From assembly GCA_030614255.1 (NCBI GenBank), contig JAUWKI010000002.1:4449-68448 (forward strand): a DNA stretch of 64,000 nucleotides, written 5' to 3'. The position numbers and the translations under genes were made by a program. Of the stretch, positions 3,653 through 58,916 are shown piece after piece. The notes under the pieces are model-generated. The model had not been told where the DNA came from, did no database searches, and saw only the letters and a list, made by a program, of their open reading frames with translations. Origin of the DNA: Actinomycetes bacterium. GTDB lineage: Bacteria; Actinomycetota; Aquicultoria; UBA3085; Oleimmundimicrobiaceae. Within the stretch, counting starts at the first letter, position 1; every line of letters begins with the position of its first letter.

Positions 3653-4292
3653 TTTTCTTCTTCATCTCCTCAACCAGATGTTCGAGCTTGTCTATTCGAC
3701 GATGCAAAGAGTTAAACGTTTCTGCCACGGGATCGGGGAGGCGCTCATGATGAAGATCCATAGTCGGAATTTTTTTGCCTTCCCTCTTTACAACCCTTCC
3801 CGGTATGCCGACAACCGTACTGTTTGGCGGAACGGGGTTAATTACCACGGCTCCTCCTCCAACAACAGAATTTTCACCAATAGTAATCGCTCCAAGAACC
3901 GTGGCACCAACACCGATTACAACGTTATCACCAATCGTCGGGTGGCGTTTCCCTTTCTCTTTCCCTGTTCCCCCTAAGGTCACACCTTGATATAGGGTAA
4001 CATTATCACCAATTTCGGTGGTCTCTCCAACGACTATACCCATCCCGTGATCAATGAAGAAACCTTTTCCAATCTTTGCTCCGGGGTGAATTTCAATAGC
4101 AGTTAAAAAACGACTAAGATGTGATATTAATCTGGCGAAAAGCTTTAAATCCCTTGCGTAAAACCAGTGAGCTACTCTATGGGACCTAAGAGCGTGAAAG
4201 CCCGGGTAGGTCAAGAATATCTCCAAGGTATTTCGCGCCGCAGGATCTCTATCTTTAACTGCCTGGAAATCACTTCTTAAGGTATCAAACAA
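3642..4292 (-). CDS. cysE: Serine O-acetyltransferase
   Basis: Hexapeptide-repeat left-handed beta-helix sequence ([24 protein letters not shown]). Sits between gltX and cysS. Confidence 0.9.
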
Positions 4293-5751
4293 GCTCCATT
4301 GCCTCCTCGATTCTCTCCAAACATTTCTCTTTCCCTAAAACCGAGATTACATAAAACAACTCCGGGCCGGATATCCTGCCGGTGAGAGCCGCACGAATAG
4401 GATGATAAGTTCCTTTTCCTTTAATATTTTTCATCTTCAATCTGCCGGCAACTTCCTTGAGAAGTACTTTTGCCATGTCAATATCGATTTTGTCCTCTTT
4501 CTCTAAAACTTCCTTGAGTATTTTAAGCACAGTTGGAATCTGCTCGCCTTTTAATATCTCTAAAGCATCCTCACTATAATCAAGCTTTTCTTCAAAGAAA
4601 AGCTTGGCACTCTTTACCACATCAGAGAGGGTCACAAGATTCGTCTGCACCGCTTCCACGACCTTTTCAATCCAAGCAATTTCTTCAATCGAAGGCTCAG
4701 ACGCAATATATCCTGCTTCCTTAAGATAGGGCAAAACCAAAGAAGTTAATTTTTTAAGCGGCAATCGTCTTATGTGCTGGCCGTTTATCCATTTAAGCTT
4801 ATCAATATCGAAGATAGCCGGACTTTTTGAAATCCTGTCTATTGAAAAAGCTTGAATTAGTTCTTGGGGAGTGAAAATCTCTCTACCATCACTGGACGAC
4901 CAACCAAGAAGAACAAGGTAGTTGACGAGCGCGCTTGGAAGAAATCCTTGTTTTCGATACTCTCCTATCGATGTCGCCCCGTGCCTCTTGCTAAGCTTCG
5001 CGTGATCCGGGCCTAAAGCCATCGAATTGTGAGCAAACTTTGGAACCGGATAACCCAATGCCTCAAAGAGAAGGATATGCCTAGCGGAGTTTGCGAGGTG
5101 ATCTTCTCCCCTTATGACATGGGTTATTTTCATGGTTGCATCGTCAATTACAACGGCGAAGTTGAAACTCGCCATTCCATCGGAGCGAATTAAAACGAAG
5201 TCTCCGATAACATCGCTATCGAATTCGACGTCGCCTTTGACCAAATCGTGAACCACAATTTTTCTTTTTGGAATTCTAAAACGTATGGTGGGTTTACGAC
5301 CTTCTGAGATTAAACGCTGCTCATCCTCAGGGGTTAAATTCCTGCAACGCCCATCATATTTCGGCATAACTCCCCGCTCAAGCGCTCCCTTGCGGTTCCT
5401 TTCAAGCTCATCCTCGGTGCAATAGCACCGATAAGCGAGCTCTTTTTCCAAGAGCTCGATGGCCATCTTTTTGTATAGTTCCCCACGTTTGCTCTGATAA
5501 TAAGGTCCGTAGTCGCCGCCAACCTCCGGCCCCTCATCCCAATTCAGCCCCAACCACTTAATATCTTCAATAATGGACTGCTCGTACTCAACAGCTGAAC
5601 GGCTGCGGTCTGTATCCTCAATTCGTAATATAAAAACACCGTTCTGACTCCTAGCAAAGAGCCAGTTAAATAAGACTGTTCTGGATGCCCCTATATGCAG
5701 ATGCCCCGTGGGACTCGGAGCAAACCTTACCCGAACATTTTTCAAAAACAC
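4285..5751 (-). CDS. gltX: Glutamyl-tRNA synthetase (copy 1)
   Basis: 488 aa with HIGH-type motif ([10 protein letters not shown]) and KLSKR. Probable GTG start preceded by an AAGGAG RBS. Confidence 0.95.
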
Positions 5752-5825: not shown

Positions 5826-5871
5826 CCCTGCCGGCAGGCAGGAAAAACGATATAGAAAAATTTAAAATGGA
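5826..5871 (-). repeat. Dispersed element R2 copy a: CCTGCC-NN-GGCAGG hairpin plus the 21-mer TATAGAAAAATTTAAAATGGA, in the gltX upstream region
   Basis: The 21-mer at 5851-5871 is identical to 41567-41587. A palindrome of the same type lies 8-13 nt to its left in both copies. Confidence 0.6.
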
Positions 5872-5965
5872 GCAAAATTCTTAAAAAGATCATCTAGAAA
5901 CTTTTTTAATTCTTAATTTTAGTTTTTCGCTTTTCATTCTCCATTTTTCACTTAACTTTACCCTT

Positions 5966-8808: not shown

Positions 8809-8826
8809 GTCAGCTACCAGTCTTCC

Positions 8827-8875
8827 GCCATCAGCCATCTGCCACCAGCCATCTGCCATCTGCCATCAGCCATCT
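8827..8875. repeat. Perfectly phased heptanucleotide tandem repeat (GCCATCW)x7
   Basis: gccatca gccatct gccacca gccatct gccatct gccatca gccatct. It is flanked by further 7-periodic spacer (gttaaag gttgaaa gtggaaa ... on the minus strand) up to the disA stop. Confidence 0.85.
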
Positions 8876-22205: not shown

Positions 22206-24044
22206 TTACTGAAATGTTATATATGCAAATTTTGAAGTCCCGTCATCTAATTCTATTCTCAATCGCCAGGTTCCCCTCGTAAGATCTTTTGTCCTGAGTT
22301 TGTAAAAATATTTATTGACAAAGCTATTATAATCAAACTCGTTGTCAGTTACCTTCGAGCTACTTGAGGTAGCCGCTATCTCTTCGCCAAAAGTACCGTC
22401 GATGTTCTTCTTCGCTAACCAGAGCTTGGCAGATGCATCGGTAACAAAATCACCATTAGCATCCCACAACTGGAATTTTACGGATAAGCCACTGCCCAAT
22501 TTAAAAACACTGCTTCCATCGCTTCTAATGGGTGGAAAAACACCACTATAAACATAACGAACATAATAAGTTCTCGTCTCTATTGTTTGGTTTCCGGCTT
22601 TATCCACCGCAACCACACTAAAAGTCTTTTCACCAACCGTAGCTGTGTCAATTACTCCCCCGTCAGGAATAGTTGCCGTCACCGAAGCTATCCCCGAAAG
22701 CGAATCATCGGCCAGCCAGCCAGCTAAAGCCGGCTCGTTCAATATATACTCAGCTCCATCAACCGGTGTAATTATTGAGACCTCTGGCGCTGTATTATCT
22801 ATTAATATATCAACTTCATTACTGGTTATTACACTTTCCAAATCGAAGTCGAACTTCTGGATTCGGTCGTTGTCTGTGTCGGCCACATAAACATTGCCGC
22901 TTGAATCAACGGTTATACCTATTGGATTCCGGAACTCGCCATCGTATAAGAAGCCGTAACTTCCCCATTTCCCAAGGAAAATGCCGTTTGAGTCGAACTT
23001 CTGGATTCGATGGTTAGAAAAATCGACTACATAAACATTGCCGCTTGAGTCGACGGCTATACCTATTGGATTCCGGAACTCGCCATCGTATAAGAAGCCG
23101 TAACTTCCCCATTCGCCAAGAAACTTGCCGTCTGAGTCGAATTTCTGGATTCGGTCGTTATTACAGTCAGCCACATAAACATTGCCGTCTGAGTCGACGG
23201 TTACACCAGTGGGGCAATCAAACTCACCTTTATCCGTACCGTAACTTCCCCATTCGGTGAGGGAATCACCATCTGAGTCGAACTTCTGGATTCGGTGGTT
23301 ATTACAGTCAGTCACATAAATATTGCCGCTTGAGTTGACAGTTACACCGAACGGGTCAAATGGGCCGTCGAGTGTACCATAACTTCCCCATTCGGTGAGG
23401 AAATTGCCATCCGAGTCGAACTTCTGGATTCGGTGGTTGCCCCGATCAGCCACATAAATATTGCCGCTTGAGTCGACGGCTACACCAGTGGGACAGTTAA
23501 ACTGGCCATCGTCTATGTCAAGACTTTCCCATTCGAAGAAATTGCCATTTGAGTCAAATTTCTGGATTCGGTGATTGTACGTGTCGGCCACATAAACATT
23601 GCCGCTTGAGTCAACTACTATGTCATATGGGCGGTTAAATTGGTCGTCGAGTGTACCAGAACCTTCCCATTTCAGAGTAAACTTATAACTTCCAATAGAA
23701 ACATTGAGTCTGGAGACGTAGTCCCCTTCATTAACTGAACCGCCATCATCGTCTGTCCCGTCCCAGATGATGCTATGAGTTCCACTGTTTTGAACACCAC
23801 CGTTGACAGTTCTGATAGGCTCACTTTCCAAATCATAATCCGAATCATAAATTTCAAGCGAAACATTGCCATCGTCAACATCGATTAAAGTGTAATTTAT
23901 GCTGGTGCTACCCGTCTCTGAATTAAAAGCATAAGGATCTACGACAATGTCAATTATAGCTGAATTACCAGATGCTAACGAAGTTGGTAGTAAAAGGGCT
24001 AAAAATAAAACCACAACTGTAAAACTTGTAACTATTTTCTTCAT
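22206..24044 (-). CDS. Secreted NHL-repeat beta-propeller protein
   Basis: Signal peptide MKKIVTSFTVVVLFLALLLPTSLASG. At least 6 NHL-type repeats (GxFxxPxGVAVDSSGNIYVAD..NHRIQKFD). The DNA also carries about 130 bp tandem repeats from 22850 to 23620. Confidence 0.85.
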   Translation of the reverse strand: MKKIVTSFTVVVLFLALLLPTSLASGNSAIIDIVVDPYAFNSETGSTSINYTLIDVDDGNVSLEIYDSDYDLESEPIRTVNGGVQNSGTHSIIWDGTDDDGGSVNEGDYVSRLNVSIGSYKFTLKWEGSGTLDDQFNRPYDIVVDSSGNVYVADTYNHRIQKFDSNGNFFEWESLDIDDGQFNCPTGVAVDSSGNIYVADRGNHRIQKFDSDGNFLTEWGSYGTLDGPFDPFGVTVNSSGNIYVTDCNNHRIQKFDSDGDSLTEWGSYGTDKGEFDCPTGVTVDSDGNVYVADCNNDRIQKFDSDGKFLGEWGSYGFLYDGEFRNPIGIAVDSSGNVYVVDFSNHRIQKFDSNGIFLGKWGSYGFLYDGEFRNPIGITVDSSGNVYVADTDNDRIQKFDFDLESVITSNEVDILIDNTAPEVSIITPVDGAEYILNEPALAGWLADDSLSGIASVTATIPDGGVIDTATVGEKTFSVVAVDKAGNQTIETRTYYVRYVYSGVFPPIRSDGSSVFKLGSGLSVKFQLWDANGDFVTDASAKLWLAKKNIDGTFGEEIAATSSSSKVTDNEFDYNSFVNKYFYKLRTKDLTRGTWRLRIELDDGTSKFAYITFQ

Positions 24045-32235: not shown

Positions 32236-32290
32236 CTTAAGTCGGTAGTATGCCTAGCTTCCAGCCCCCAGTCTCCAGCCGCCAGCATAA
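32236..32290. repeat. Heptad-periodic spacer (CTTCCAG CCCCCAG TCTCCAG CCGCCAG) between panB and panC, including the GTCGGTAGT word
   Basis: Direct reading shows 7-bp phasing of CCAG. The unit CCCCAGT is identical to cyanobacterial STRR1. Confidence 0.7.
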
Positions 32291-34794: not shown

Positions 34795-34978
34795 TTAGCT
34801 ACCAGTCACCAGCTTACAGCCACCAGGATAAAGTGCAAGACTTGAAATTCAGAGAATGGATTTGTGGTTAGAAAGTTTGGTTTGCCGGATTATTGGTTGG
34901 ATAGTTTTCCCCATACTCCAACATTCTGCTCTATTTTTAGTTTTGCTGAAAGCTGAGAGCTGGAGGCTGACGGCTAAA
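34795..34978. repeat. Heptad-periodic spacer between folP and folK (TAGCTAC CAGTCAC CAGCTTA CAGCCAC; GCTGAAA GCTGAGA GCTGGAG GCTGACG)
   Basis: Two phased 7-mer arrays flank a GTTTGGT/GTTGGAT-rich middle. The 200 bp gap sits inside a presumably co-transcribed folate operon. Confidence 0.7.
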
Positions 34979-39974: not shown

Positions 39975-41357
39975 CTATTTTTTAAATCGAGCCCTAATTT
40001 TGAGAATACGCTGTGTCTTTTTGGTCACCTTAAACCTGTCATCAATTCTATGTCCGACAACCCAAACTATCTCTCCTCCGGATACAACTATGGGAACGTA
40101 ATCCCTCAACCGCTCGGGCAATTTTGCGTCCACGAAATAGTCTTGTAGTTTTTTTTCACCCTTTAAGCCGAGTGGATAAAATTTATCACCGGGTAAACGA
40201 CTACGAATGTTGATAGGGAAACGTGCCTTGTCAGCATCCAAACATTCAACAAGGACTCCCCCTCTTTCCGCCAAACGAGATTCTTTTTTTGAAATATCTT
40301 CTCTTATAAACAAATCTTCTTTTTTTTCTATCACGTTCATCTCAAGTTTAATATTTAACTCCGGTACTTCAATCTTTCCCGGCTCATCGAGAATAACCTC
40401 AACATATTTTTTTCTTTCAAGCAAACCTCGTCTTACTAGAACGAGTTCATTATACTCCCTAATGATGGAGAGATGACCCGGAATATCCCGTCTAAATTTT
40501 GGCATCTTCTCCGCATCCAATAATATATCTTTTATATGCTTAAACTCAACTGCCTCAAGGTCTCCTTTTAAAACTTTGAGTCCTATGCGCAATACCCTGC
40601 GCCTTATTGCCAAAGGAAGTGATTTTAAATCTTTGAGCGAAAATCTAATCAAGCCATTTTCAATCAAGGATAGACGATTAAACTCCCGGGAAGCAGTTTC
40701 ATCTAAAAATTGTTCATCATCGCTAATAACTTCAATGGTCTGTAAAGTTGTCTCTCTAAGGTTTGGGTTGTATTTTTCCAGATAGGGAATCAAATCGTAG
40801 CGAACCTTGTTACGAAGATAGGTAAGGTCAAAATTTGAAGCATCCACCCTGAATTTAATTCCTTGAGCTTTACAATATTCTTCAATTTCCTTTCTTGAAA
40901 TTTCAATTAAAGGACGAACAAATATATCTCTCACAGGAGGAATAGCGCTTAGTCCTTTGAGTCCGCTTCCTCTTAAAAGACGCATCAAAAAGGTCTCCGT
41001 TTGATCATCGGCCGTATGCCCCAACGCTATCTTGTCCACACCTATCTCGTCCGCTACTTTCTTGAAGAGCATATAGCGAACCTCCCGCGCGCCATCTTCC
41101 ACGGAAAGGTTTTTCTCGGTAACATATGATGGAACATCGAAAGAGAGAATCGTCGAGGGCAAACTCTCTTTTTTAGCCAGCGCCTCTACAAACTGCGCGT
41201 CTTTCTTTGAAGCATCTCCTCGAAGCATGTGGTCTAAATGAAAAATATGCAGACTCAAATTAAAGTTATTTCTAAGTTGGAGTAAAAAATGAAGTAAGGC
41301 AACCGAATCTTGACCACCAGATACGGCAATCAATACTTTATCGCCGCGCTTTAACAT
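39975..41357 (-). CDS. tilS: tRNA(Ile)-lysidine synthetase
   Basis: PP-loop SGGQDS near the N-terminus. Start called at MLKRGDKVLIAVSGGQDS; the longer ORF-track N-terminus is probably an extension. Confidence 0.85.
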   Translation of the reverse strand: MLKRGDKVLIAVSGGQDSVALLHFLLQLRNNFNLSLHIFHLDHMLRGDASKKDAQFVEALAKKESLPSTILSFDVPSYVTEKNLSVEDGAREVRYMLFKKVADEIGVDKIALGHTADDQTETFLMRLLRGSGLKGLSAIPPVRDIFVRPLIEISRKEIEEYCKAQGIKFRVDASNFDLTYLRNKVRYDLIPYLEKYNPNLRETTLQTIEVISDDEQFLDETASREFNRLSLIENGLIRFSLKDLKSLPLAIRRRVLRIGLKVLKGDLEAVEFKHIKDILLDAEKMPKFRRDIPGHLSIIREYNELVLVRRGLLERKKYVEVILDEPGKIEVPELNIKLEMNVIEKKEDLFIREDISKKESRLAERGGVLVECLDADKARFPINIRSRLPGDKFYPLGLKGEKKLQDYFVDAKLPERLRDYVPIVVSGGEIVWVVGHRIDDRFKVTKKTQRILKIRARFKK

Positions 41358-41538
41358 ATTGTATTTTAAAACGGTGTCTTTAACCCTTTTAAATAGATTA
41401 TCGGTTGATATAGAAATCCACTCCCATAAAGCGGTTAATAGATAATAGTAATTCCGTTTAACTTCCACATTACTTTTATCCTTTTAACTGTCAGCCATCA
41501 GCAAATTAAAAAATAAAAGTGAAAAAAGAAAAACTACC

Positions 41539-41587
41539 TACCTGCCAACAGGTACAATAGACACAGTATAGAAAAATTTAAAATGGA
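41539..41587 (-). repeat. Dispersed element R2 copy b (TACCTG-TTGG-CAGGTA hairpin plus TATAGAAAAATTTAAAATGGA) in the tilS upstream region
   Basis: Its 21-mer is identical to the one at 5851-5871. Confidence 0.6.
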
Positions 41588-41687
41588 AATTTCTTTAAGG
41601 TAATGCTCATCATAAAATCAACATCTATTTCTCGGGTAAACTATGCTTGGAAATCATTTTTATTTTTTCATTATCGTTTTACATTCT

Positions 41688-41748
41688 TCATTTTTCATTT
41701 TTTCGTAAGACCAGGCAACCCTGTACCAGGTATCTGGCATTTAACTTC
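41688..41748 (-). repeat. Dispersed ~60 bp element R1 copy 1 (TTTTCGTAAGACCAGGCAACCCTGTACCAGGTATCTGGCATTTAACTT)
   Basis: About 90% identical to 51971-52036. Contains a CCAG-ATAC-CTGG mini-hairpin. Lies downstream of the amidase gene and upstream of tilS. Confidence 0.6.
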
Positions 41749-41759
41749 ACTCTATATCC

Positions 41760-42851
41760 TTACTTAAGGTATTTAACTATCCCGTTAAACAACCCCCGAG
41801 CCGCTTTATTCTGGAACGATTCGTCATTTAAGAGGGTATCTTCTTCGGGGTTGCTCAAAAAACAAATCTCAGACAGAACAACTGGAACCTGCGACCAATT
41901 AAAGCCCGTAATATCTCCTCTTGCAATTATTCCTTTATTTGCCCGCCCGCAAGCGATGACCATCTCCCGCTGAATAAGTTGAGCAGCTTTCCGGCTTTCA
42001 TCGTATATAGACCCACACCATTCATTTCTGGAAGGATAAAGAGTCATGATACCATTTGATGAAGTGCTTGAACTGCCATTACAATGAATTCGGACAAACA
42101 AGTCGGCCTTTGCCTCGTTGGCAATTTGAGCTCTTTCAGAGTTACTAATGTTTACATCGTTAGTAGTCCGAACCATCACAACCTTAATCCCTTCACTTTC
42201 AAGCATTTTCTTCAATTTTAACCCTATCTGTAAAACTATCTCATATTCGGGAGTTCTTGAATTTACTCCGGTTCCTCCTCCTCTGCATCTCTCTTTCGTT
42301 GTGGTAGAACCCGGTCCGATAGATTCTGGAGAGTTATCTGCATGCCCCTGATGACCTGGGTCTATACAGACTATAAACTCAAACGATGTTACCTTTAAGT
42401 CCTCAAAATCTTCGGAGTCCTCCTCGAATGCCTCAGGGGTAGCTTCCCCAAGCCCTTCGGAAAGATCAGTTTCAACATCTGTTGGAACTTCCTTAGCAGA
42501 TGTTCTCTCTGCCCCTTTGCTCACCGATATGACGATTAACTTGCCTCTTTTTACTCGACTTCCTGAGTCAGGTTTTTGAGAAATAACAGTTCCCTCGGGT
42601 AAATCGCTGAATTTTTCTGAAACTTCAAGATCAAACCCACTTTGGGAAACCAGACCTTTTGCTTCTTCTAAATTTTTTCCAACCAAATTCGGGACGACCT
42701 CGGAAACAATAACGTTTGTATAGATATAATAAAAACCAAGAATCAAAAGTATCAGTAGAAAGAAAACGCTGAGAAGTCCCCGCTTTCGGCGTTTTCTGTA
42801 AATTACGATGCCGTGTTTTAGTTTAACTTTTGGAGTAAAATTTCGCTTCAC
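41760..42851 (-). CDS. Membrane-anchored PASTA-domain / N-acetylmuramoyl-L-alanine amidase (Amidase_3) fusion protein
   Basis: N-terminal TM segment, then a PASTA-like domain (VPNLVGKNLEEAKGLVSQSGFDLEV), then a C-terminal amidase_3 core (CIDPGHQGH...NGSSS...). Confidence 0.7.
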   Translation of the reverse strand: MKRNFTPKVKLKHGIVIYRKRRKRGLLSVFFLLILLILGFYYIYTNVIVSEVVPNLVGKNLEEAKGLVSQSGFDLEVSEKFSDLPEGTVISQKPDSGSRVKRGKLIVISVSKGAERTSAKEVPTDVETDLSEGLGEATPEAFEEDSEDFEDLKVTSFEFIVCIDPGHQGHADNSPESIGPGSTTTKERCRGGGTGVNSRTPEYEIVLQIGLKLKKMLESEGIKVVMVRTTNDVNISNSERAQIANEAKADLFVRIHCNGSSSTSSNGIMTLYPSRNEWCGSIYDESRKAAQLIQREMVIACGRANKGIIARGDITGFNWSQVPVVLSEICFLSNPEEDTLLNDESFQNKAARGLFNGIVKYLK

Positions 42852-47015: not shown

Positions 47016-47033
47016 TTTATGACTAAAATAGTT

Positions 47034-47110
47034 ATTGGTCATTGGTTCTTGGTTATTAGCTGGGGGCTGAAGACTGGAAGCTGGAAGCTGCGCTATCGAC
47101 TAATTGGGGT
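47034..47110. repeat. Eleven phased heptamers upstream of mqnA (ATTGGTC ATTGGTT CTTGGTT ATTAGCT GGGGGCT GAAGACT GGAAGCT GGAAGCT GCGCTAT CGACTAA TTGGGGT)
   Basis: Direct reading. The TTGGTCA unit equals cyanobacterial STRR2. Confidence 0.8.
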
Positions 47111-47941: not shown

Positions 47942-49013
47942 ATTGAAAGCAACGGAGAATATTTTAAAAAAATCTCTTTCTGGAAAAAGAATTACAGAAA
48001 ACAAGGCACTCACCCTATTGAAAGAAGGCAAGCTAATTCAATTGGGAGAAGCTGCAAACGAATTGCGCAAAAAATTTCACCACGAAGGCATTGTCACATT
48101 TGTCATCGATAGAAACATAAATTACACCAACATATGCGAGAGTAAATGTAAGTTCTGCGCCTTCTATAGAGAAAAAACTGACCCGGACGCTTACGTTCTC
48201 GACAAAGATGAAATATTTTCAAAGATAGATGAGGCATTAGAGCTAGGCGGAACTCAAATTATGCTACAAGGAGGGCTTAACCCCGACTTAAAAATAGACT
48301 ATTACACAGATTTGCTTTCAGCTATAAAATCAAATTACAAGATACACATCCACTCCTTTTCCCCCCCGGAAATTGCTCACATCTCTAAAAACTCAGGACT
48401 TTCACTAAGAGAAACTCTTTCGGAGTTAAAGAAAGCGGGGCTTGATTCTTTACCCGGTGGAGGTGCCGAGATCTTAGTTGACCACATTAGACATCAGATA
48501 AGCCCAAACAAAATCGGAGCCGAACTCTGGCTTAAGGTTATGGAAGAAGCTCACAACGTTGGTCTTCGAGCAACCGCAACCATGATGATGGGAAGTTTGG
48601 AAACATTGGAGGAAAGAATCTCTCATCTCTCCAAATTAAGAGCTCTGCAAGATAAAACAGGAGTTTTCAGGGCCTTTATCCCCTGGACATTTCAACCCGG
48701 GCACACAGAACTAGGTGGGGAGAAAACAACGGGGGTTGAATATCTAAAAATGCTTAGCGTCTCGAGGATATTTTTAGATAATTTTGAGCATGTGCAGGGT
48801 TCATGGCTTACCCAGGGCAAAAAAATTGGGCAAATTGCTCTTCATTTCGGGGCAAACGACTTGGGAAGCATAATGATAGAGGAAAATGTCGTCGCCTCAA
48901 CAGGCGTCTGTTACAAGATGTCAAAGGACCAGATAATCAATATGATTAATAAAGCGGGTTTTATCCCGGCCCAAAGAAACACCAAATATGAAATTTTAGA
49001 AACCTTTAGTTAA
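47928..49013 (+). CDS. Radical SAM MqnC/MqnE family enzyme (paralog 2)
   Basis: CxxxCxxC (CESKCKFC). Colinear with paralog 1. Confidence 0.8.
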   Translation: MWRYRLKATENILKKSLSGKRITENKALTLLKEGKLIQLGEAANELRKKFHHEGIVTFVIDRNINYTNICESKCKFCAFYREKTDPDAYVLDKDEIFSKIDEALELGGTQIMLQGGLNPDLKIDYYTDLLSAIKSNYKIHIHSFSPPEIAHISKNSGLSLRETLSELKKAGLDSLPGGGAEILVDHIRHQISPNKIGAELWLKVMEEAHNVGLRATATMMMGSLETLEERISHLSKLRALQDKTGVFRAFIPWTFQPGHTELGGEKTTGVEYLKMLSVSRIFLDNFEHVQGSWLTQGKKIGQIALHFGANDLGSIMIEENVVASTGVCYKMSKDQIINMINKAGFIPAQRNTKYEILETFS

Positions 49014-49122
49014 TTGTAAGTCCGTGTTCACTTAATCAATGCTTCTAAGTTAAAAATTTACACTTGGACTTCTGCGAAAAATAAAAAACTTTTACTTTCA
49101 ACAAAGAACAGGCAGAAGCACC

Positions 49123-49956
49123 TTAAGCAATAAAATCCTCGCGGTAAGTTTTAAATATTTTCTTTTCATATCCCATTTTTAGCAAATATTTGATGGCCTC
49201 AATTCCTTCTTCCCCAAGGTCTATACTAAACCGGTTTACATAAAGCTCTATATGTTGTTTAATAACATCGTCCTCAAGCTCCTGCGCATATTCTTTTATA
49301 TACTCCATTGATTCTTCTCGATGTAGAAATGCATATTCAACGCTTTTTTTAATACAGGAATCAATTCTTCCGATAGTTTCTTTTCCCAAGCTCCTTTTGG
49401 CAAAAATTCCTCCAAGCGGGATGGGCAATCCCGTTGTCTCCTCCCACCAGTTACCAAGGTCAATCACCTTAAATAAACCCTCTTTTTTGTAGGTAAATCG
49501 ACCTTCGTGGATTATGACTCCGGCATCAACAATTCCTTCTTTTATGGCAGGCATTATCTTCTCAAAACCCATCTCTACTAAATTTTTACATTGGTTATTG
49601 TATAGTTTAAAAAGCATAGCAGCAGTTGTATGCTTTCCAGGTATAGCTATTTTTTTATCAGTGAGTTCTTCTGGCGCAAAAGGATGATGGGAAACAAGCA
49701 GCGGCCCACAACCTCGACCAAGAGCACTTCCGCTCCTAAGAAGTACATAATCGTTTACAAGATGGCCAAATGCCTGGTATGAAAGCTTGGTAACGTCGAA
49801 TTTACAATTAAAAGCAGCTTTATTTAACGTTTCAACATCAGCAAGAGTTTCGACAAAATTTAACTCACAATCATTTACCTTTTTCTTCATTAGCGGGTAA
49901 AAGATAAATGTATCGTTTGGACAAGTAGAAAAACCAATTGTGATGGGTTTCATCAA
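49123..49956 (-). CDS. mqnD: 1,4-dihydroxy-6-naphthoate synthase MqnD-like
   Basis: 277 aa MqnA/MqnD-fold protein. N-terminus MMKPITIGFSTCPNDTFIFYPL. Confidence 0.75.
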   Translation of the reverse strand: MMKPITIGFSTCPNDTFIFYPLMKKKVNDCELNFVETLADVETLNKAAFNCKFDVTKLSYQAFGHLVNDYVLLRSGSALGRGCGPLLVSHHPFAPEELTDKKIAIPGKHTTAAMLFKLYNNQCKNLVEMGFEKIMPAIKEGIVDAGVIIHEGRFTYKKEGLFKVIDLGNWWEETTGLPIPLGGIFAKRSLGKETIGRIDSCIKKSVEYAFLHREESMEYIKEYAQELEDDVIKQHIELYVNRFSIDLGEEGIEAIKYLLKMGYEKKIFKTYREDFIA

Positions 49957-50594
49957 AACACCTCAGGTAAAAGTTTTTTTAAAACCCTTGTGCCTTTATC
50001 TATCGCCTCATTTAATTTCCATTTTGACTTGTCACGATCTTCAACCATATTACTTACGCATCGAAGCTCAATCATAGGCACACGGTAAAGTTCACAAATA
50101 CGGGCTACGGCTGCGCCCTCCATATTTTCACAAATAGCGCCAAATTTATCCCGCAAGAAATTTCCTCTTTGAAGTGTTCCACTGCAAGAATTTACAGTAA
50201 CGAAGTTGCCAATTTTGTAGGGTATTTTAAGAACATTTAACTTGTTTTCAACTTTATCAAGCAAGTTGTTTCTTAAATTAAAGATGCGCTTGTTCTTCAG
50301 GGCATCATCGGTAAAATATTCCACCTCATTGCCCATTGCAACCCCAAGGTCACCAAAGTACTCCTTTTCAGCGAGGCATATGTCGAGAATATCTACACCC
50401 GTGTTTGAATATGCTCCCCCGACACCAAACAAAATCAGACCTTCCACTTCTCTTTCTGCAAATAATCTTGCGAGCGAAATCGCACTTTCCACCATTCCAA
50501 CGTTAGTGGTAAGAAAGTTGAAATCCCTCTCAAGCTCTTTGCTCTTTCTTAATTGGCCTATCTCTATCTCCGTAGAACTTACAATAAGATACAT
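49953..50594 (-). CDS. mqnB: Futalosine hydrolase MqnB (MTA/SAH-nucleosidase fold)
   Basis: 213 aa PNP/UDP-phosphorylase-like nucleosidase sequence overlapping mqnD. Confidence 0.75.
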   Translation of the reverse strand: MYLIVSSTEIEIGQLRKSKELERDFNFLTTNVGMVESAISLARLFAEREVEGLILFGVGGAYSNTGVDILDICLAEKEYFGDLGVAMGNEVEYFTDDALKNKRIFNLRNNLLDKVENKLNVLKIPYKIGNFVTVNSCSGTLQRGNFLRDKFGAICENMEGAAVARICELYRVPMIELRCVSNMVEDRDKSKWKLNEAIDKGTRVLKKLLPEVF

Positions 50595-50689
50595 ATAATG
50601 GCATTAAACTCCAGTTTGTTATTTGCGTCAATCCTTCTATGCTTTTGTTTGCCACTAAACTTTACTATAAGATTCGAGCTTCAGCATAG

Positions 50690-50780
50690 GTTTTCAGAAG
50701 AACAAAAGAAATTTAACCCAGCGAGTTTTATCCTCGCCAGAAGAAACACCAAATATAAAATCCTGGAGACTCTCAGTTAG
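50690..50780 (+). pseudogene. 3'-terminal fragment of a MqnC/E-like gene (relic duplication)
   Basis: 50719-50780 aligns at about 75% nucleotide identity with 48952-49013. The peptide ...ASFILARRNTKYKILETLS* matches the paralog-2 C-terminus ...AGFIPAQRNTKYEILETFS*. No radical SAM core precedes it. Confidence 0.5.
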
Positions 50781-50976
50781 TAAGTAAACTACCACCGGCC
50801 ACAGGGCTGGTGGCTTTCCTACCCCCGATGCAGGCGATATCATTGCTATAAGGGACCTTTTGGGATTAATTATTCACTGGGAAGAGAAAACCGAGTAAAA
50901 AAACAGAGTCATCGTTGCAGGGACCCTAAGATACACTGAGCTCAAACCGCACCTATAATTACCCAACCGGTTATCC

Positions 50977-51867
50977 CTAAACGTTTCCAAGATGGACATG
51001 TTTTAACTTCTTAAGTGCAATTTCCTCGGCCATCCTCAATGTTTTAAGAGACGTCGGCGGTTCCGAGTATTCAAGATAAGGAAAATAACGGCTAAAATGC
51101 AAGGGGGTTTCCTTGCCAACTTTAGATGCTACCCACTCAACAAGCTTTTCAATCTCCTCTCTTGAATCATTTAAGCCCGGAACTAATAAATTAGTCAATT
51201 CAACGTGACATTTTTTACTGGCAATTTCAACAGTGCGCAACACCGGAGCGAGCTTTCCACCAAGTTTTCTGTAAATCTCATCGGAAAATCCTTTCACGTC
51301 GATATTCATAGCATCAATATATGGCAACAACTTTTTAAGAGGTTCTTCATTAACATAACCGTTGGTGACCAAAACATTCTTCAGTCCGTTTTCGCGAGCA
51401 AGCTTGGCGGTTTCATAGACATACTCAAACCAGACAAACGGCTCATTGTACGTATATGCCAAACCAATATTATCATTTTTAAGATAAGCTAAGGCGAGGT
51501 CAACCGCCTGTTTTGGAGACAAAGAATCGGTCACCCTGGAGACAACCTTCTCCATATCCTCACCGGGGAAAACTTCACGAGGTTGAGCAATTTGCCAATT
51601 TTGACAGAAGGGACATGCCAAATTACAGCCAATGCTTCCCAAAGATAAAATCATTGTTTTGGGATGAAAATGATAAAGCGGCTTCTTTTCTATGGGGTCG
51701 AGATTGCAAGAGCAGATTCTACTGTAAGTCAACGCAACAAGAGTTCCGTCGATATTCTTTCTGATACAGCATATCCCTGTTTTACCAGGAGAAATTACAC
51801 ATTTATGGGGACAAAGAAGACACTTTACTTTCTTATCAGGCCTCTTTTCATAGAATTTAGCTTCCAT
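50977..51867 (-). CDS. Radical SAM enzyme, AmmeMemoRadiSam-system (AmrS) / PFL-activase-like
   Basis: N-terminal Cys cluster (CLLCPHKC...GIC) plus the CNLACPFCQNW radical SAM motif. 296 aa. Confidence 0.7.
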   Translation of the reverse strand: MEAKFYEKRPDKKVKCLLCPHKCVISPGKTGICCIRKNIDGTLVALTYSRICSCNLDPIEKKPLYHFHPKTMILSLGSIGCNLACPFCQNWQIAQPREVFPGEDMEKVVSRVTDSLSPKQAVDLALAYLKNDNIGLAYTYNEPFVWFEYVYETAKLARENGLKNVLVTNGYVNEEPLKKLLPYIDAMNIDVKGFSDEIYRKLGGKLAPVLRTVEIASKKCHVELTNLLVPGLNDSREEIEKLVEWVASKVGKETPLHFSRYFPYLEYSEPPTSLKTLRMAEEIALKKLKHVHLGNV

Positions 51868-51970
51868 GAACCACGCCCCCTTACCTCTCGATACAATTAT
51901 AACGTAAGTGCCCTTAATAAGACTTCAATTTTTCAACACAGGCATCAACTATAGATAAAACTTCCTTATG

Positions 51971-52036
51971 ATTTTCATTCTCCACTTTTTCGTAAGACCA
52001 GGCAACTCTGTGCCAGGTATTTGGCATTTAACTTTA
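51971..52036 (-). repeat. Dispersed ~60 bp element R1 copy 2
   Basis: About 90% identical to 41688-41748. Lies about 100 nt upstream of the AmrS-like gene start. Confidence 0.6.
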
Positions 52037-52039
52037 CCC

Positions 52040-52260
52040 ATTACCCTATACCAACCAGTCGGTAGTTTCTTAGTGGGAAGTCGGCAGTTTGCCGGCCAAA
52101 TTACTGATTTTACTATATTCCATATTCTATACTCTATATTCCATTCACCATCTGCTATCTGCCCCGCCAAAGGCGGGCAAGCATCTGCTATCAGCTATCT
52201 AGTCGGTAGTCCGTAGTCTGGAGTCGGTAGTTTGTTGGCTAGATTGCTGGTCTTACTATA
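52040..52260. repeat. 220 bp spacer built from phased heptamers (ATAYTCY units; AGTCGGT AGTCCGT AGTCTGG AGTCGGT) plus four GTCGGYAGT words and a CCCGCC-AAAG-GCGGG hairpin
   Basis: Direct reading. Lies between tRNA-Arg and the AmrS-like gene. Confidence 0.75.
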
Positions 52261-52262
52261 CT

Positions 52263-52338
52263 CTATACTGTTTGGCGCGCTCGACGGGATTCGAACCCAC
52301 GACACCAGGCTCCGGAGGCCTGTGCTCTATCCACTGAG
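52263..52338 (-). tRNA. tRNA-Arg (anticodon CCG)
   Basis: 76 nt cloverleaf GCGCTCGTAGCTCAGTGGATAGAGCA...CAGGC-CTCCGGA-GCCTG...GGTTCGAATCC...CGAGCGCGCCA with CCA encoded. Confidence 0.85.
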
Positions 52339-52446
52339 CTACGAGCGCATAAAACCAGTTAACAATAAGTAGTTGGTGGTTAATAGCAAGTGATGGTGAC
52401 CGTTTCTTCTATCTTTACTACTTATTTATTATGCTCGTACAATTAA

Positions 52447-58679: not shown

Positions 58680-58916
58680 CTTGAGATTGCCGCGTCGCCT
58701 AACGGCTCCTCCCGCCAGAGGCGGGCAGGCATAATGACGGGGAAGTGTTGCTCTAATCTCTCTACTTGATTTCTACTGAGTGTTGATATTGAAATTAATG
58801 GTAATTCATTGAAACTAATAGTAATTTATGGTAACTAACTGAAATTTCCACCAATTACCACTTAATCTCCACTTAATTACAACTTAATTTCTATTTAATC
58901 CTTACCCCTATCCCCT
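58680..58916. repeat. Heptad-periodic spacer between the gltX copy 2 stop and tRNA-Gln (TTAAT/GGGTAAW units), with a CCCGCC-AGAG-GCGGG hairpin
   Basis: Minus strand reads GGGTAAT GGGTAAA GGGGATA GGGTAAG GATTAAA ... in phase for more than 150 nt. Confidence 0.7.

Follow-up and report, generated by a model that had tools for sequence, protein, structure and literature searches.

We analysed a 64,000-nt stretch of DNA from an Actinomycetes bacterium (GenBank assembly GCA_030614255.1, contig JAUWKI010000002.1, positions 4,449 to 68,448 of the forward strand; hereafter the window) and focused on R1, a short non-coding repeat that lies upstream of tilS and of an AmrS-like radical SAM gene. Comparison with the orthologous loci of related species suggests that R1 is a piece of the spacer upstream of tilS that was duplicated by a local rearrangement into the gap left by a lost neighboring gene, and we put the probability of this origin at roughly 0.55. 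Copy 1 (in the spacer between an amidase gene and tilS) would be the donor, and copy 2 (in the spacer between tRNA-Arg and the radical SAM gene) marks the place of the lost gene. Coordinates of the relevant features are collected in Table 1.

A repeat search of the window returned R1 as one family of two copies (41687-41760 and 51974-52047; 74 nt, 85% identity ungapped). Gapped alignment widened both copies to the extents listed in Table 1, with 77 of 89 aligned positions identical (87%), one indel of 7 nt, which equals one heptad, and two indels of 1 nt. The copies are in direct orientation on the same strand, 10,287 nt apart. The 39-nt center of the repeat, GACCAGGCAACYCTGTRCCAGGTATYTGGCATTTAACTT, had exactly two matches in the window and none in 100 dinucleotide shuffles, and two half-patterns searched with three mismatches allowed returned the same two sites only. 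The initial annotation had described a non-coding repeat in two copies of the same orientation upstream of tilS and the AmrS-like gene, and this description was confirmed; both of its sites were right, with edges that were off by a few bases.

Searches beyond the window left the copy count at two. No third copy of the core was found in ~76 kb of this genome (the window plus 8.1 kb and 3.9 kb of flanking contig) and no further copy in ~130 kb of syntenic loci from five related species. Among public collections, the GTDB representative genomes gave 40 matches to the pattern CCAGGCAACNCTGTNCCAGG, all of them chance matches in which similarity stopped at the pattern edges; a 27-mer from R1 gave one chance match in the JGI metagenomes, inside an open reading frame (ORF) of 1036 aa; three R1 patterns gave nothing or a chance match in IMG/VR; and blastn with R1 gave no match among plasmids and phages. 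Searches of ~210 kb using nhmmer with core, family, and short-form models recovered only the sequences from which the models had been built, and a query with R1 translated in all five of its open frames against 5.8 billion proteins returned no called ORF lying over another copy. Copy 2 is unchanged in a second strain (L055), which is uninformative; the 6 single-nucleotide polymorphisms found in 5.6 kb all fall outside R1. In a further strain of 99% identity (L043), the contig begins downstream of copy 1.

The gene order around copy 2 is the first line of evidence for the proposed origin. L060, L061, L045, and L046 share the order HAD, tRNA-Arg, an inositol-monophosphatase-family gene (Inositol_P, PF00459, 313 aa), a spacer of ~40 nt, and the radical SAM gene. 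The Inositol_P gene is absent from this place in the window and in its closest relative, L058. A remnant of the 3' end of this gene was identified beside copy 2 of the window in a tblastn search, where 11 of 18 residues were identical to the outgroup C-terminus ELHKKVLKEVDSGIEKLK (E = 7e-4); the DNA of the remnant is identical to L060 at 40 of 53 positions (75%), which equals the coding divergence. Upstream of the copy 2 core, the spacer aligns with the outgroup up to the ribosome binding site (RBS) and start region of Inositol_P, GGAGGTTAATATG. The R1 core itself has no significant DNA similarity to the Inositol_P gene on either strand. Because the remnant and the RBS region flank copy 2, and because the core is unlike the gene, copy 2 sits exactly in place of the gene body, with the RBS region on one side and the last ~20 codons on the other. 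Derivation of the core from a decayed piece of Inositol_P was considered and rejected on the lack of DNA similarity, and a comparison by eye with the N-terminal part of the protein was unconvincing.

The amidase-tilS spacer of the relatives bears on the direction of copying. Conservation in L045 covers the end of the amidase gene and GTGAAGTTAAA, returns at GTAAAACGATAATG, and continues to tilS; between these two anchors lies an unrelated 145-nt cassette made of heptads and a GC hairpin. The L061 spacer is organized like that of L045, yet it keeps AATGCCAGGTAT-TGGTCTTACGAAAAAATG (L061 19515-19544) at the same site and in the same orientation as copy 1. This short form includes an exact match of 18 nt to copy 1 and is without the 16 nt CCTGGTACAGGGTTGC, which repeat the CCTGGT arm. 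In L046, the unit is inverted and closer to tilS, with 19 of 23 positions matching. A short hairpin unit, ATGCCAG-RTA-YTGGTCTTACGAAAAAATG, can thus be recognized in the tilS spacer in the same orientation in L061, inverted in L046, and decayed in L045, and a longer form with the 16 extra bases is carried by the window and L058. L044 and L058 have deleted the greater part of both the amidase gene and the amidase-tilS spacer, and of the gene only the 5' end remains. Since the outgroup L061 has the short form at the orthologous site in the same orientation, copy 1 is the ancestral copy. The occurrence of the unit as long, short, inverted, decayed, or deleted forms across relatives marks it as an old but dispensable and structurally labile resident of this spacer.

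These comparisons show that the common lineage of the window and L058 lost the Inositol_P gene that had stood between tRNA-Arg and the radical SAM gene. We propose that a segment of ~90 nt from the tilS spacer, 10.3 kb away on the same strand, served as template or recombination partner during this loss. The copy could have arisen by a template switch, by ectopic conversion between homeologous sequences, or by duplication and subsequent deletion, with homeology that would be supplied by generic flank modules and by spacers with a period of seven, both of which are described below. A nearby donor on the same strand and in direct orientation fits such a local copy. The junctions of copy 2 are A-rich, heptad-like, and alike in donor and recipient (left, GTTAA(A/T)ATG; right, AATG(T)AAAA..ATAA.GAA), both being of low complexity, and at either end the similarity between the copies trails off in sequence that is also like the ends of the lost gene. 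The arrangement is like templated or filler insertions and ectopic conversions of the kind attributed to microhomology-mediated break-induced replication or fork stalling and template switching (MMBIR/FoSTeS), in that a short copy of a nearby same-strand donor lies at a gene-deletion junction, the junctions appear to fall in short imperfect homology, and the donor is the ancestral copy. It is unlike them in that the event at R1 is deduced from comparative genomics alone and in that its homeologies are low-complexity heptads; a duplication followed by a deletion would also leave the same end product. Copy 2 itself is probably without a function of its own, as a conserved TATAAT box still precedes the radical SAM gene and tilS retains a conserved leader.

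Several observations weigh against this origin or against parts of it. The direction of copying rests on a single outgroup sequence that has the short form only, and the short, low-complexity homeologies at the junctions suggest the event without proving it. The window and L061 are identical over 18 nt, more than the 74-80% of coding DNA, which could reflect selection on the unit, although high conservation is not specific to R1, because the whole downstream tilS spacer is similarly conserved. Two copies in 76 kb are also compatible with tens of copies genome-wide. The age of copy 2 is a further point. The radical SAM spacer of L058 holds TGATATAGTGCTGCC-GGTCTTATAAAAAAATGGAG, a similarity matched in score by 1 of 500 shuffles and consistent with a decayed long form that was later shortened by a deletion between the similar 11-mers AAAAAGTGGAG and AAAAATTGAAG, so that the long form may predate the split between the window and L058. 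However, the same L058 element also aligns colinearly with the Inositol_P 3' remnant, and because of this alternative alignment it is uncertain whether copy 2 is older than that split.

R1 is a composite element. The left flank of the 74-nt repeat, GGGTAAAGTTAAATG, and its A-rich right flank, GAAAAATG-A-AATGAA, are modules of spacer DNA: further occurrences in the window are at 1409 and 5963 for the left flank and at 5949 for the right. At one of these sites the flanks are joined directly without the core (Table 1), which identifies them as generic spacer sequence. Only a core of ~34 nt, CCARATACCTGGYACAGRGTTGCCTGGTCTTACG, is unique to the two R1 loci. The spacers that host R1 have a strong period of seven: Tandem Repeats Finder detected period-7 arrays in many spacers, of which one (41654-41702) abuts copy 1 and two lie near copy 2. 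Autocorrelation of pooled spacers peaks at lags 7, 14, and 21 (0.39-0.58 in seven spacers against ~0.28 at other lags), with no such peak in coding DNA. The heptamers are varied (GCCATCA, TAGTCGG, TACCCTA, TCATTTT, and others), and the R1 core retains a weak period-7 signal.

The short tandemly repeated repetitive (STRR) sequences of cyanobacteria are comparable intergenic heptamer repeats. Direct repeats of the intergenic heptamer TAACTGA have been described in Beggiatoaceae, Cyanobacteria, and Bacteroidetes (PMC4679880). The spacers that host R1 are like these in consisting of period-7 tandem repeats, often beside start codons, with heptads also flanking R1. They are unlike them in using many different heptamers, in belonging to an actinomycetotal lineage not listed in that paper, and in that R1 itself is a segment of unique sequence with no tandem array.

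R1 could also be a mobile miniature repeat similar to repetitive extragenic palindromic (REP) sequences that is commoner elsewhere in the genome and inserts after GTTAAA in heptad-rich spacers. GTTAAA precedes both copies, the unit faces either way depending on the species, sister species lack the element or have other sequence in its place at the orthologous sites, other short modules such as a GC hairpin (TGCCCGCCTYTGGCGGGGCA) move between spacers, and contigs of the Logan collection break within these spacers. Like REP sequences and the bacterial interspersed mosaic elements (BIME) built from them, R1 is extragenic, ~30-45 nt long, equipped with small imperfect palindromes, present in both orientations across species, and set in mosaics of short spacer motifs. 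In contrast to them, it was seen in two copies, has stems of 4-6 bp (CCAG/CTGG-type) rather than at least 10 bp, lacks a conserved GTAG-type head, and is not known to be accompanied here by a RAYT transposase. No terminal inverted repeats were found, and no clear target duplication, the sole candidate (TTAA/TTAC) being imperfect; the core is absent from both sites in relatives, which have different sequence in its place and show no clean empty site. The two copies lie within 10.3 kb of each other, the profile search of ~210 kb and the public collections held no other, and the six-frame peptide query of 5.8 billion proteins gave no ORFs overlapping other copies. We consider a mobile origin rather unlikely, and the suggestion that R1 is a dispersed miniature repeat was not supported in the DNA scanned.

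A DNA-level cis-regulatory site, by which one regulator would couple tilS-hpt-ftsH to the radical SAM gene of the AmmeMemoRadiSam system, is the alternative that we would place first, although it too is unlikely. Both copies lie upstream of genes on the same strand, the window and L061 agree throughout the TGGTCTTACGAAAAAATG part although their coding DNA is only ~76% identical, and the core contains short inverted and direct repeats centered on CCWGG. A weak sigma-70-like promoter (TTGCCT-17-AAAAAT/GAGAAT, 8 of 12 positions) can also be read in it, under the threshold of the promoter scan. The orthologous loci argue otherwise, as the outgroup radical SAM gene has a spacer of ~40 nt with the same TATAAT and no R1, L044 and L058 deleted the entire copy 1 region, and the unit in the tilS spacer is long, short, inverted and relocated, or decayed depending on the species, while the leader downstream of it is largely invariant. 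The distances to the downstream genes are also unequal (107 nt vs. more than 220 nt).

Regulation and rearrangement could also be combined. The unit ATGCCAG-RTA-YTGGTCTTACGAAAAAATG together with the ~280-nt conserved leader would then form a lineage-specific regulatory module of tilS-hpt-ftsH in Candidatus (Ca.) Aquicultoria, and the R1 unit would be a putative hairpin site for a protein, recruited to its place before the AmmeMemoRadiSam gene at the loss of Inositol_P. We find this combination doubtful, and less likely than either a simple regulatory site or a mobile repeat.

A CCAG-ATAC-CTGG hairpin had been described for the repeat; it is intact in copy 1 only, and the sense strand of copy 2 reads CCAA-ATAC-CTGG. 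R1 as a small RNA or structured leader, or as part of one, is very unlikely. In its favor, R1 is a repeated non-coding sequence, G-U pairing on the plus strand survives two of the three core substitutions, and a terminator-like hairpin with a T-run lies ~130 nt downstream of copy 1 (41554-41539). On the other hand, folding was unremarkable whichever strand was used (z-scores of -0.1 to -1.5), and each copy has its own minimum-energy structure. At the gathering threshold the only Rfam matches were three tRNAs, relaxing the limit to E <= 10 added nothing credible, and the sequences downstream of the two copies are unrelated. The orthologues differ by a 16-nt indel and an inversion with no compensating pattern. 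Folding and orthologue comparison thus gave neither a shared structure nor covariation for R1, and the earlier suggestion of a small RNA is unsupported. With two copies in the DNA searched and no covariation, the analysis arrived at two of the three observations that the initial annotation had named as refuting its reading.

The resemblance to a sigma-54 promoter (-24/-12) was judged similarly. The initial annotation had pointed to TGGYAC-N4-TTGC with 9 nt between GG and GC, and this motif is present in both copies as described and nowhere else in the window, where 0.13 occurrences would be expected by chance. R1 shares with such promoters the TGGCAC and TTGC blocks. The spacing is one base short of the usual 10 nt in both copies, though, and orthologues do not keep the motif: L058 has lost its GG (TGATAT...CTGC) and the whole -24 half is missing from the L061 orthologue. 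Motifs with the correct spacing occur at chance level in the window (2 found vs. 2.3 expected). To our knowledge, Actinomycetota are generally without rpoN. We give almost no credence to R1 as a sigma-54 promoter, and the evidence contradicts this reading.

A small peptide encoded by R1, either MP(D/N)TW(Y/H)RVAWSYEK... on the minus strand or ...HFFVRPGN(P/S)VPGIWHLT on the plus strand, is highly improbable. Five frames are open across the core, none of six substitutions falls at a second codon position, and the minus-strand ORF of copy 2 is in frame with the C-terminal remnant of Inositol_P. Against this, there is no RBS of the GGAGG type, unlike the real genes here, the 16-nt indel in the L061 orthologue breaks every frame, no homologue was found among 5.8 billion proteins, and the substitution pattern is not significant (p ~0.1 per frame, calculated by hand). 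The copies were also considered as attachment (att) sites of an integrated element and rejected: the 10.3-kb interval holds menaquinone genes (futalosine/Ubi-type) that are syntenic in all relatives, no recombinase was seen, and the repeat is 225 nt away from the tRNA.

Table 1. Coordinates in the window of R1, its flanking features, and related spacer elements.
Feature	Position	Strand	Remark
R1 copy 1 (putative donor, ancestral), full similarity extent	41667..41763	-	Amidase-tilS spacer
R1 copy 2 (putatively derived), full similarity extent	51962..52051	-	tRNA-Arg/radical SAM gene spacer
Part of copy 1 unaligned with the orthologous L045 spacer: TGCCAGATACCTGGTACAGGGTTGCCTGGTCTTACGAAAAAATGAAAAATGAAGAAT	41683..41739	-	BLAST breakpoints and alignment
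Copy 2 core and A-rich right flank, at the position of the lost Inositol_P gene body	51974..52026	-	Alignments with outgroups
Remnant of Inositol_P, last ~20 codons and stop: ENHKEVLSIVDACVEKLKSY (stop)	51914..51976	-	tblastn
Sigma-54-like TGGTACAGGGTTGC, copy 1, 9 nt GG-GC	41715..41728	-	-24 half absent from L061 orthologue
Sigma-54-like TGGCACAGAGTTGC, copy 2, 9 nt GG-GC	52002..52015	-	L058 counterpart is TGATATAGTGCTGC
Coreless paralogous module: left flank GGGTAAAGTTAAGTG joined directly to right flank AAAAATGGAGAATGAAAA	5931..5963	-	
tRNA-Arg(CCG), upstream neighbor of copy 2 spacer	52273..52348	-	Kept in all relatives
TATAAT box upstream of radical SAM gene	51896..51901	-	Conserved in 6/6 species, with or without R1
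Highly conserved non-coding leader, copy 1 to tilS	41401..41682	-	Outside repeat; sets right boundary of copy 1
Period-7 spacers, examples	1374-1424, 8816-8875, 32256-32286, 34945-34970, 41654-41702, 47031-47090, 52115-52144, 52200-52231		

Genes in this part of the window are almost all on the minus strand. Copy 1 begins 17 nt past the stop codon of a gene with PASTA and Amidase_3 domains (41760-42851) and lies ~220-330 nt upstream of tilS, for which the longest ORF starts at 41468 and the called start is at ~41357. Domains PF01171 and PF11734 were recognized in the tilS product, which relatives call tRNA lysidine(34) synthetase. Copy 2 is separated by 107 nt from the ATG (51867) of the radical SAM gene downstream of it (50977-51867) and by 225 nt from tRNA-Arg(CCG) on its upstream side; in relatives this radical SAM gene bears the name "AmmeMemoRadiSam system radical SAM enzyme." The genes had been named correctly from the sequence, as domains and the names used in relatives agree. 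The closest proteins to TilS and to the radical SAM enzyme are from Ca. Oleimmundimicrobium sp. (72% and 84% identity, respectively), which is placed in Actinomycetota, Ca. Aquicultoria, Ca. Subteraquimicrobiales. Contigs identical or 99.9% identical to this DNA are present in a few metagenomes.

Relics of other genes were found near the radical SAM gene. The spacer between it and a PNP_UDP_1-family gene (49953-50594) extends over 50595-50976 and holds two of them. One, at 50838-50891, corresponds to a portion of the DUF1622 gene found in relatives (94% to L044/L058). The other, at 50720-50771, is a fragment of the 3' end of a CofH-like gene (CofH_C radical SAM), with 88% identity to L061 and 77% to the end of the window's own gene (48953-49021). 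A repeat at 50713-50779 had been considered as a second templated patch; it is instead this relic of the CofH-like 3' end and thus of a different kind. The BON gene of relatives is missing from the window block. These other traces of rearrangement in the same 10-kb block are in line with the proposed origin of copy 2.

Two further observations concern the spacers. Logan contigs from two samples break inside heptad-rich spacers (~5862, 46984, and 52093-52115), and since these contigs end there, low-complexity spacer modules seem to be repeated elsewhere in the genome or community at 31-mer identity. The GC-rich hairpin module TGCCCGCCTYTGGCGGGGCA, flanked by the heptads GATAGCW/GATGGCW, occurs at 52160-52179 and 58708-58727 and in non-orthologous spacers of several species (L045 9669 and 4352, L046 15844, and L058 ~9680); one 38-nt stretch is 95% identical between the window and L045. 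This module may be REP-like or a terminator.

Over 213 nt, the leader that separates copy 1 from tilS shares 86% identity with L045, compared with 74-80% for the flanking genes, and it is mostly invariant in a three-way alignment with L045 (9694-9990) and L061 (19575-19875). It gave no Rfam match and no conserved ORF, and no covariation, the variation being too small. The leader includes the terminator-like hairpin and T-run (41539-41554, ~130 nt downstream of copy 1). A 21-nt box, TCCATTTTAAATTTTTCTATA, is identical at 41567-41587 and 5851-5871 (minus strand) and also present at L045 9789. At both window sites, which are upstream of tilS and of a glutamyl-tRNA-synthetase-type gene (4285-5751), respectively, the box is followed by a CCTG...CAGG hairpin and a T-run; the hairpin stems differ in sequence while their shape is kept. 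The called start of tilS is an internal ATG (MLKRGD...; 41357-41420, minus strand). About 16 codons before it (ISTDNLFKRVKDTVLKYN) and a Shine-Dalgarno-like GGGAGTGG are conserved in all relatives, and an in-frame stop further upstream in L045 limits how far the gene could extend, so that translation may in fact begin at a non-canonical ATA or ATT codon. Elsewhere in the window, five to six tandem copies of a 138-144-nt unit (22847-23673) lie inside a 612-aa ORF (22206-24044, minus strand), which suggests that its product is a repeat-domain protein.

R1 is most likely an ordinary by-product of rearrangement in a heptad-rich spacer. Taken alone it is of little importance, and the period-7 architecture of the spacers, with its reusable short modules, and the conserved tilS leader are the more interesting leads in this uncultured actinomycetotal lineage. 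It does provide a worked example of a short, well-conserved "motif" that is found in two copies before unrelated operons and can nonetheless be a scar of rearrangement, and of how a comparison of orthologous loci can decide between such a scar and a regulatory element.

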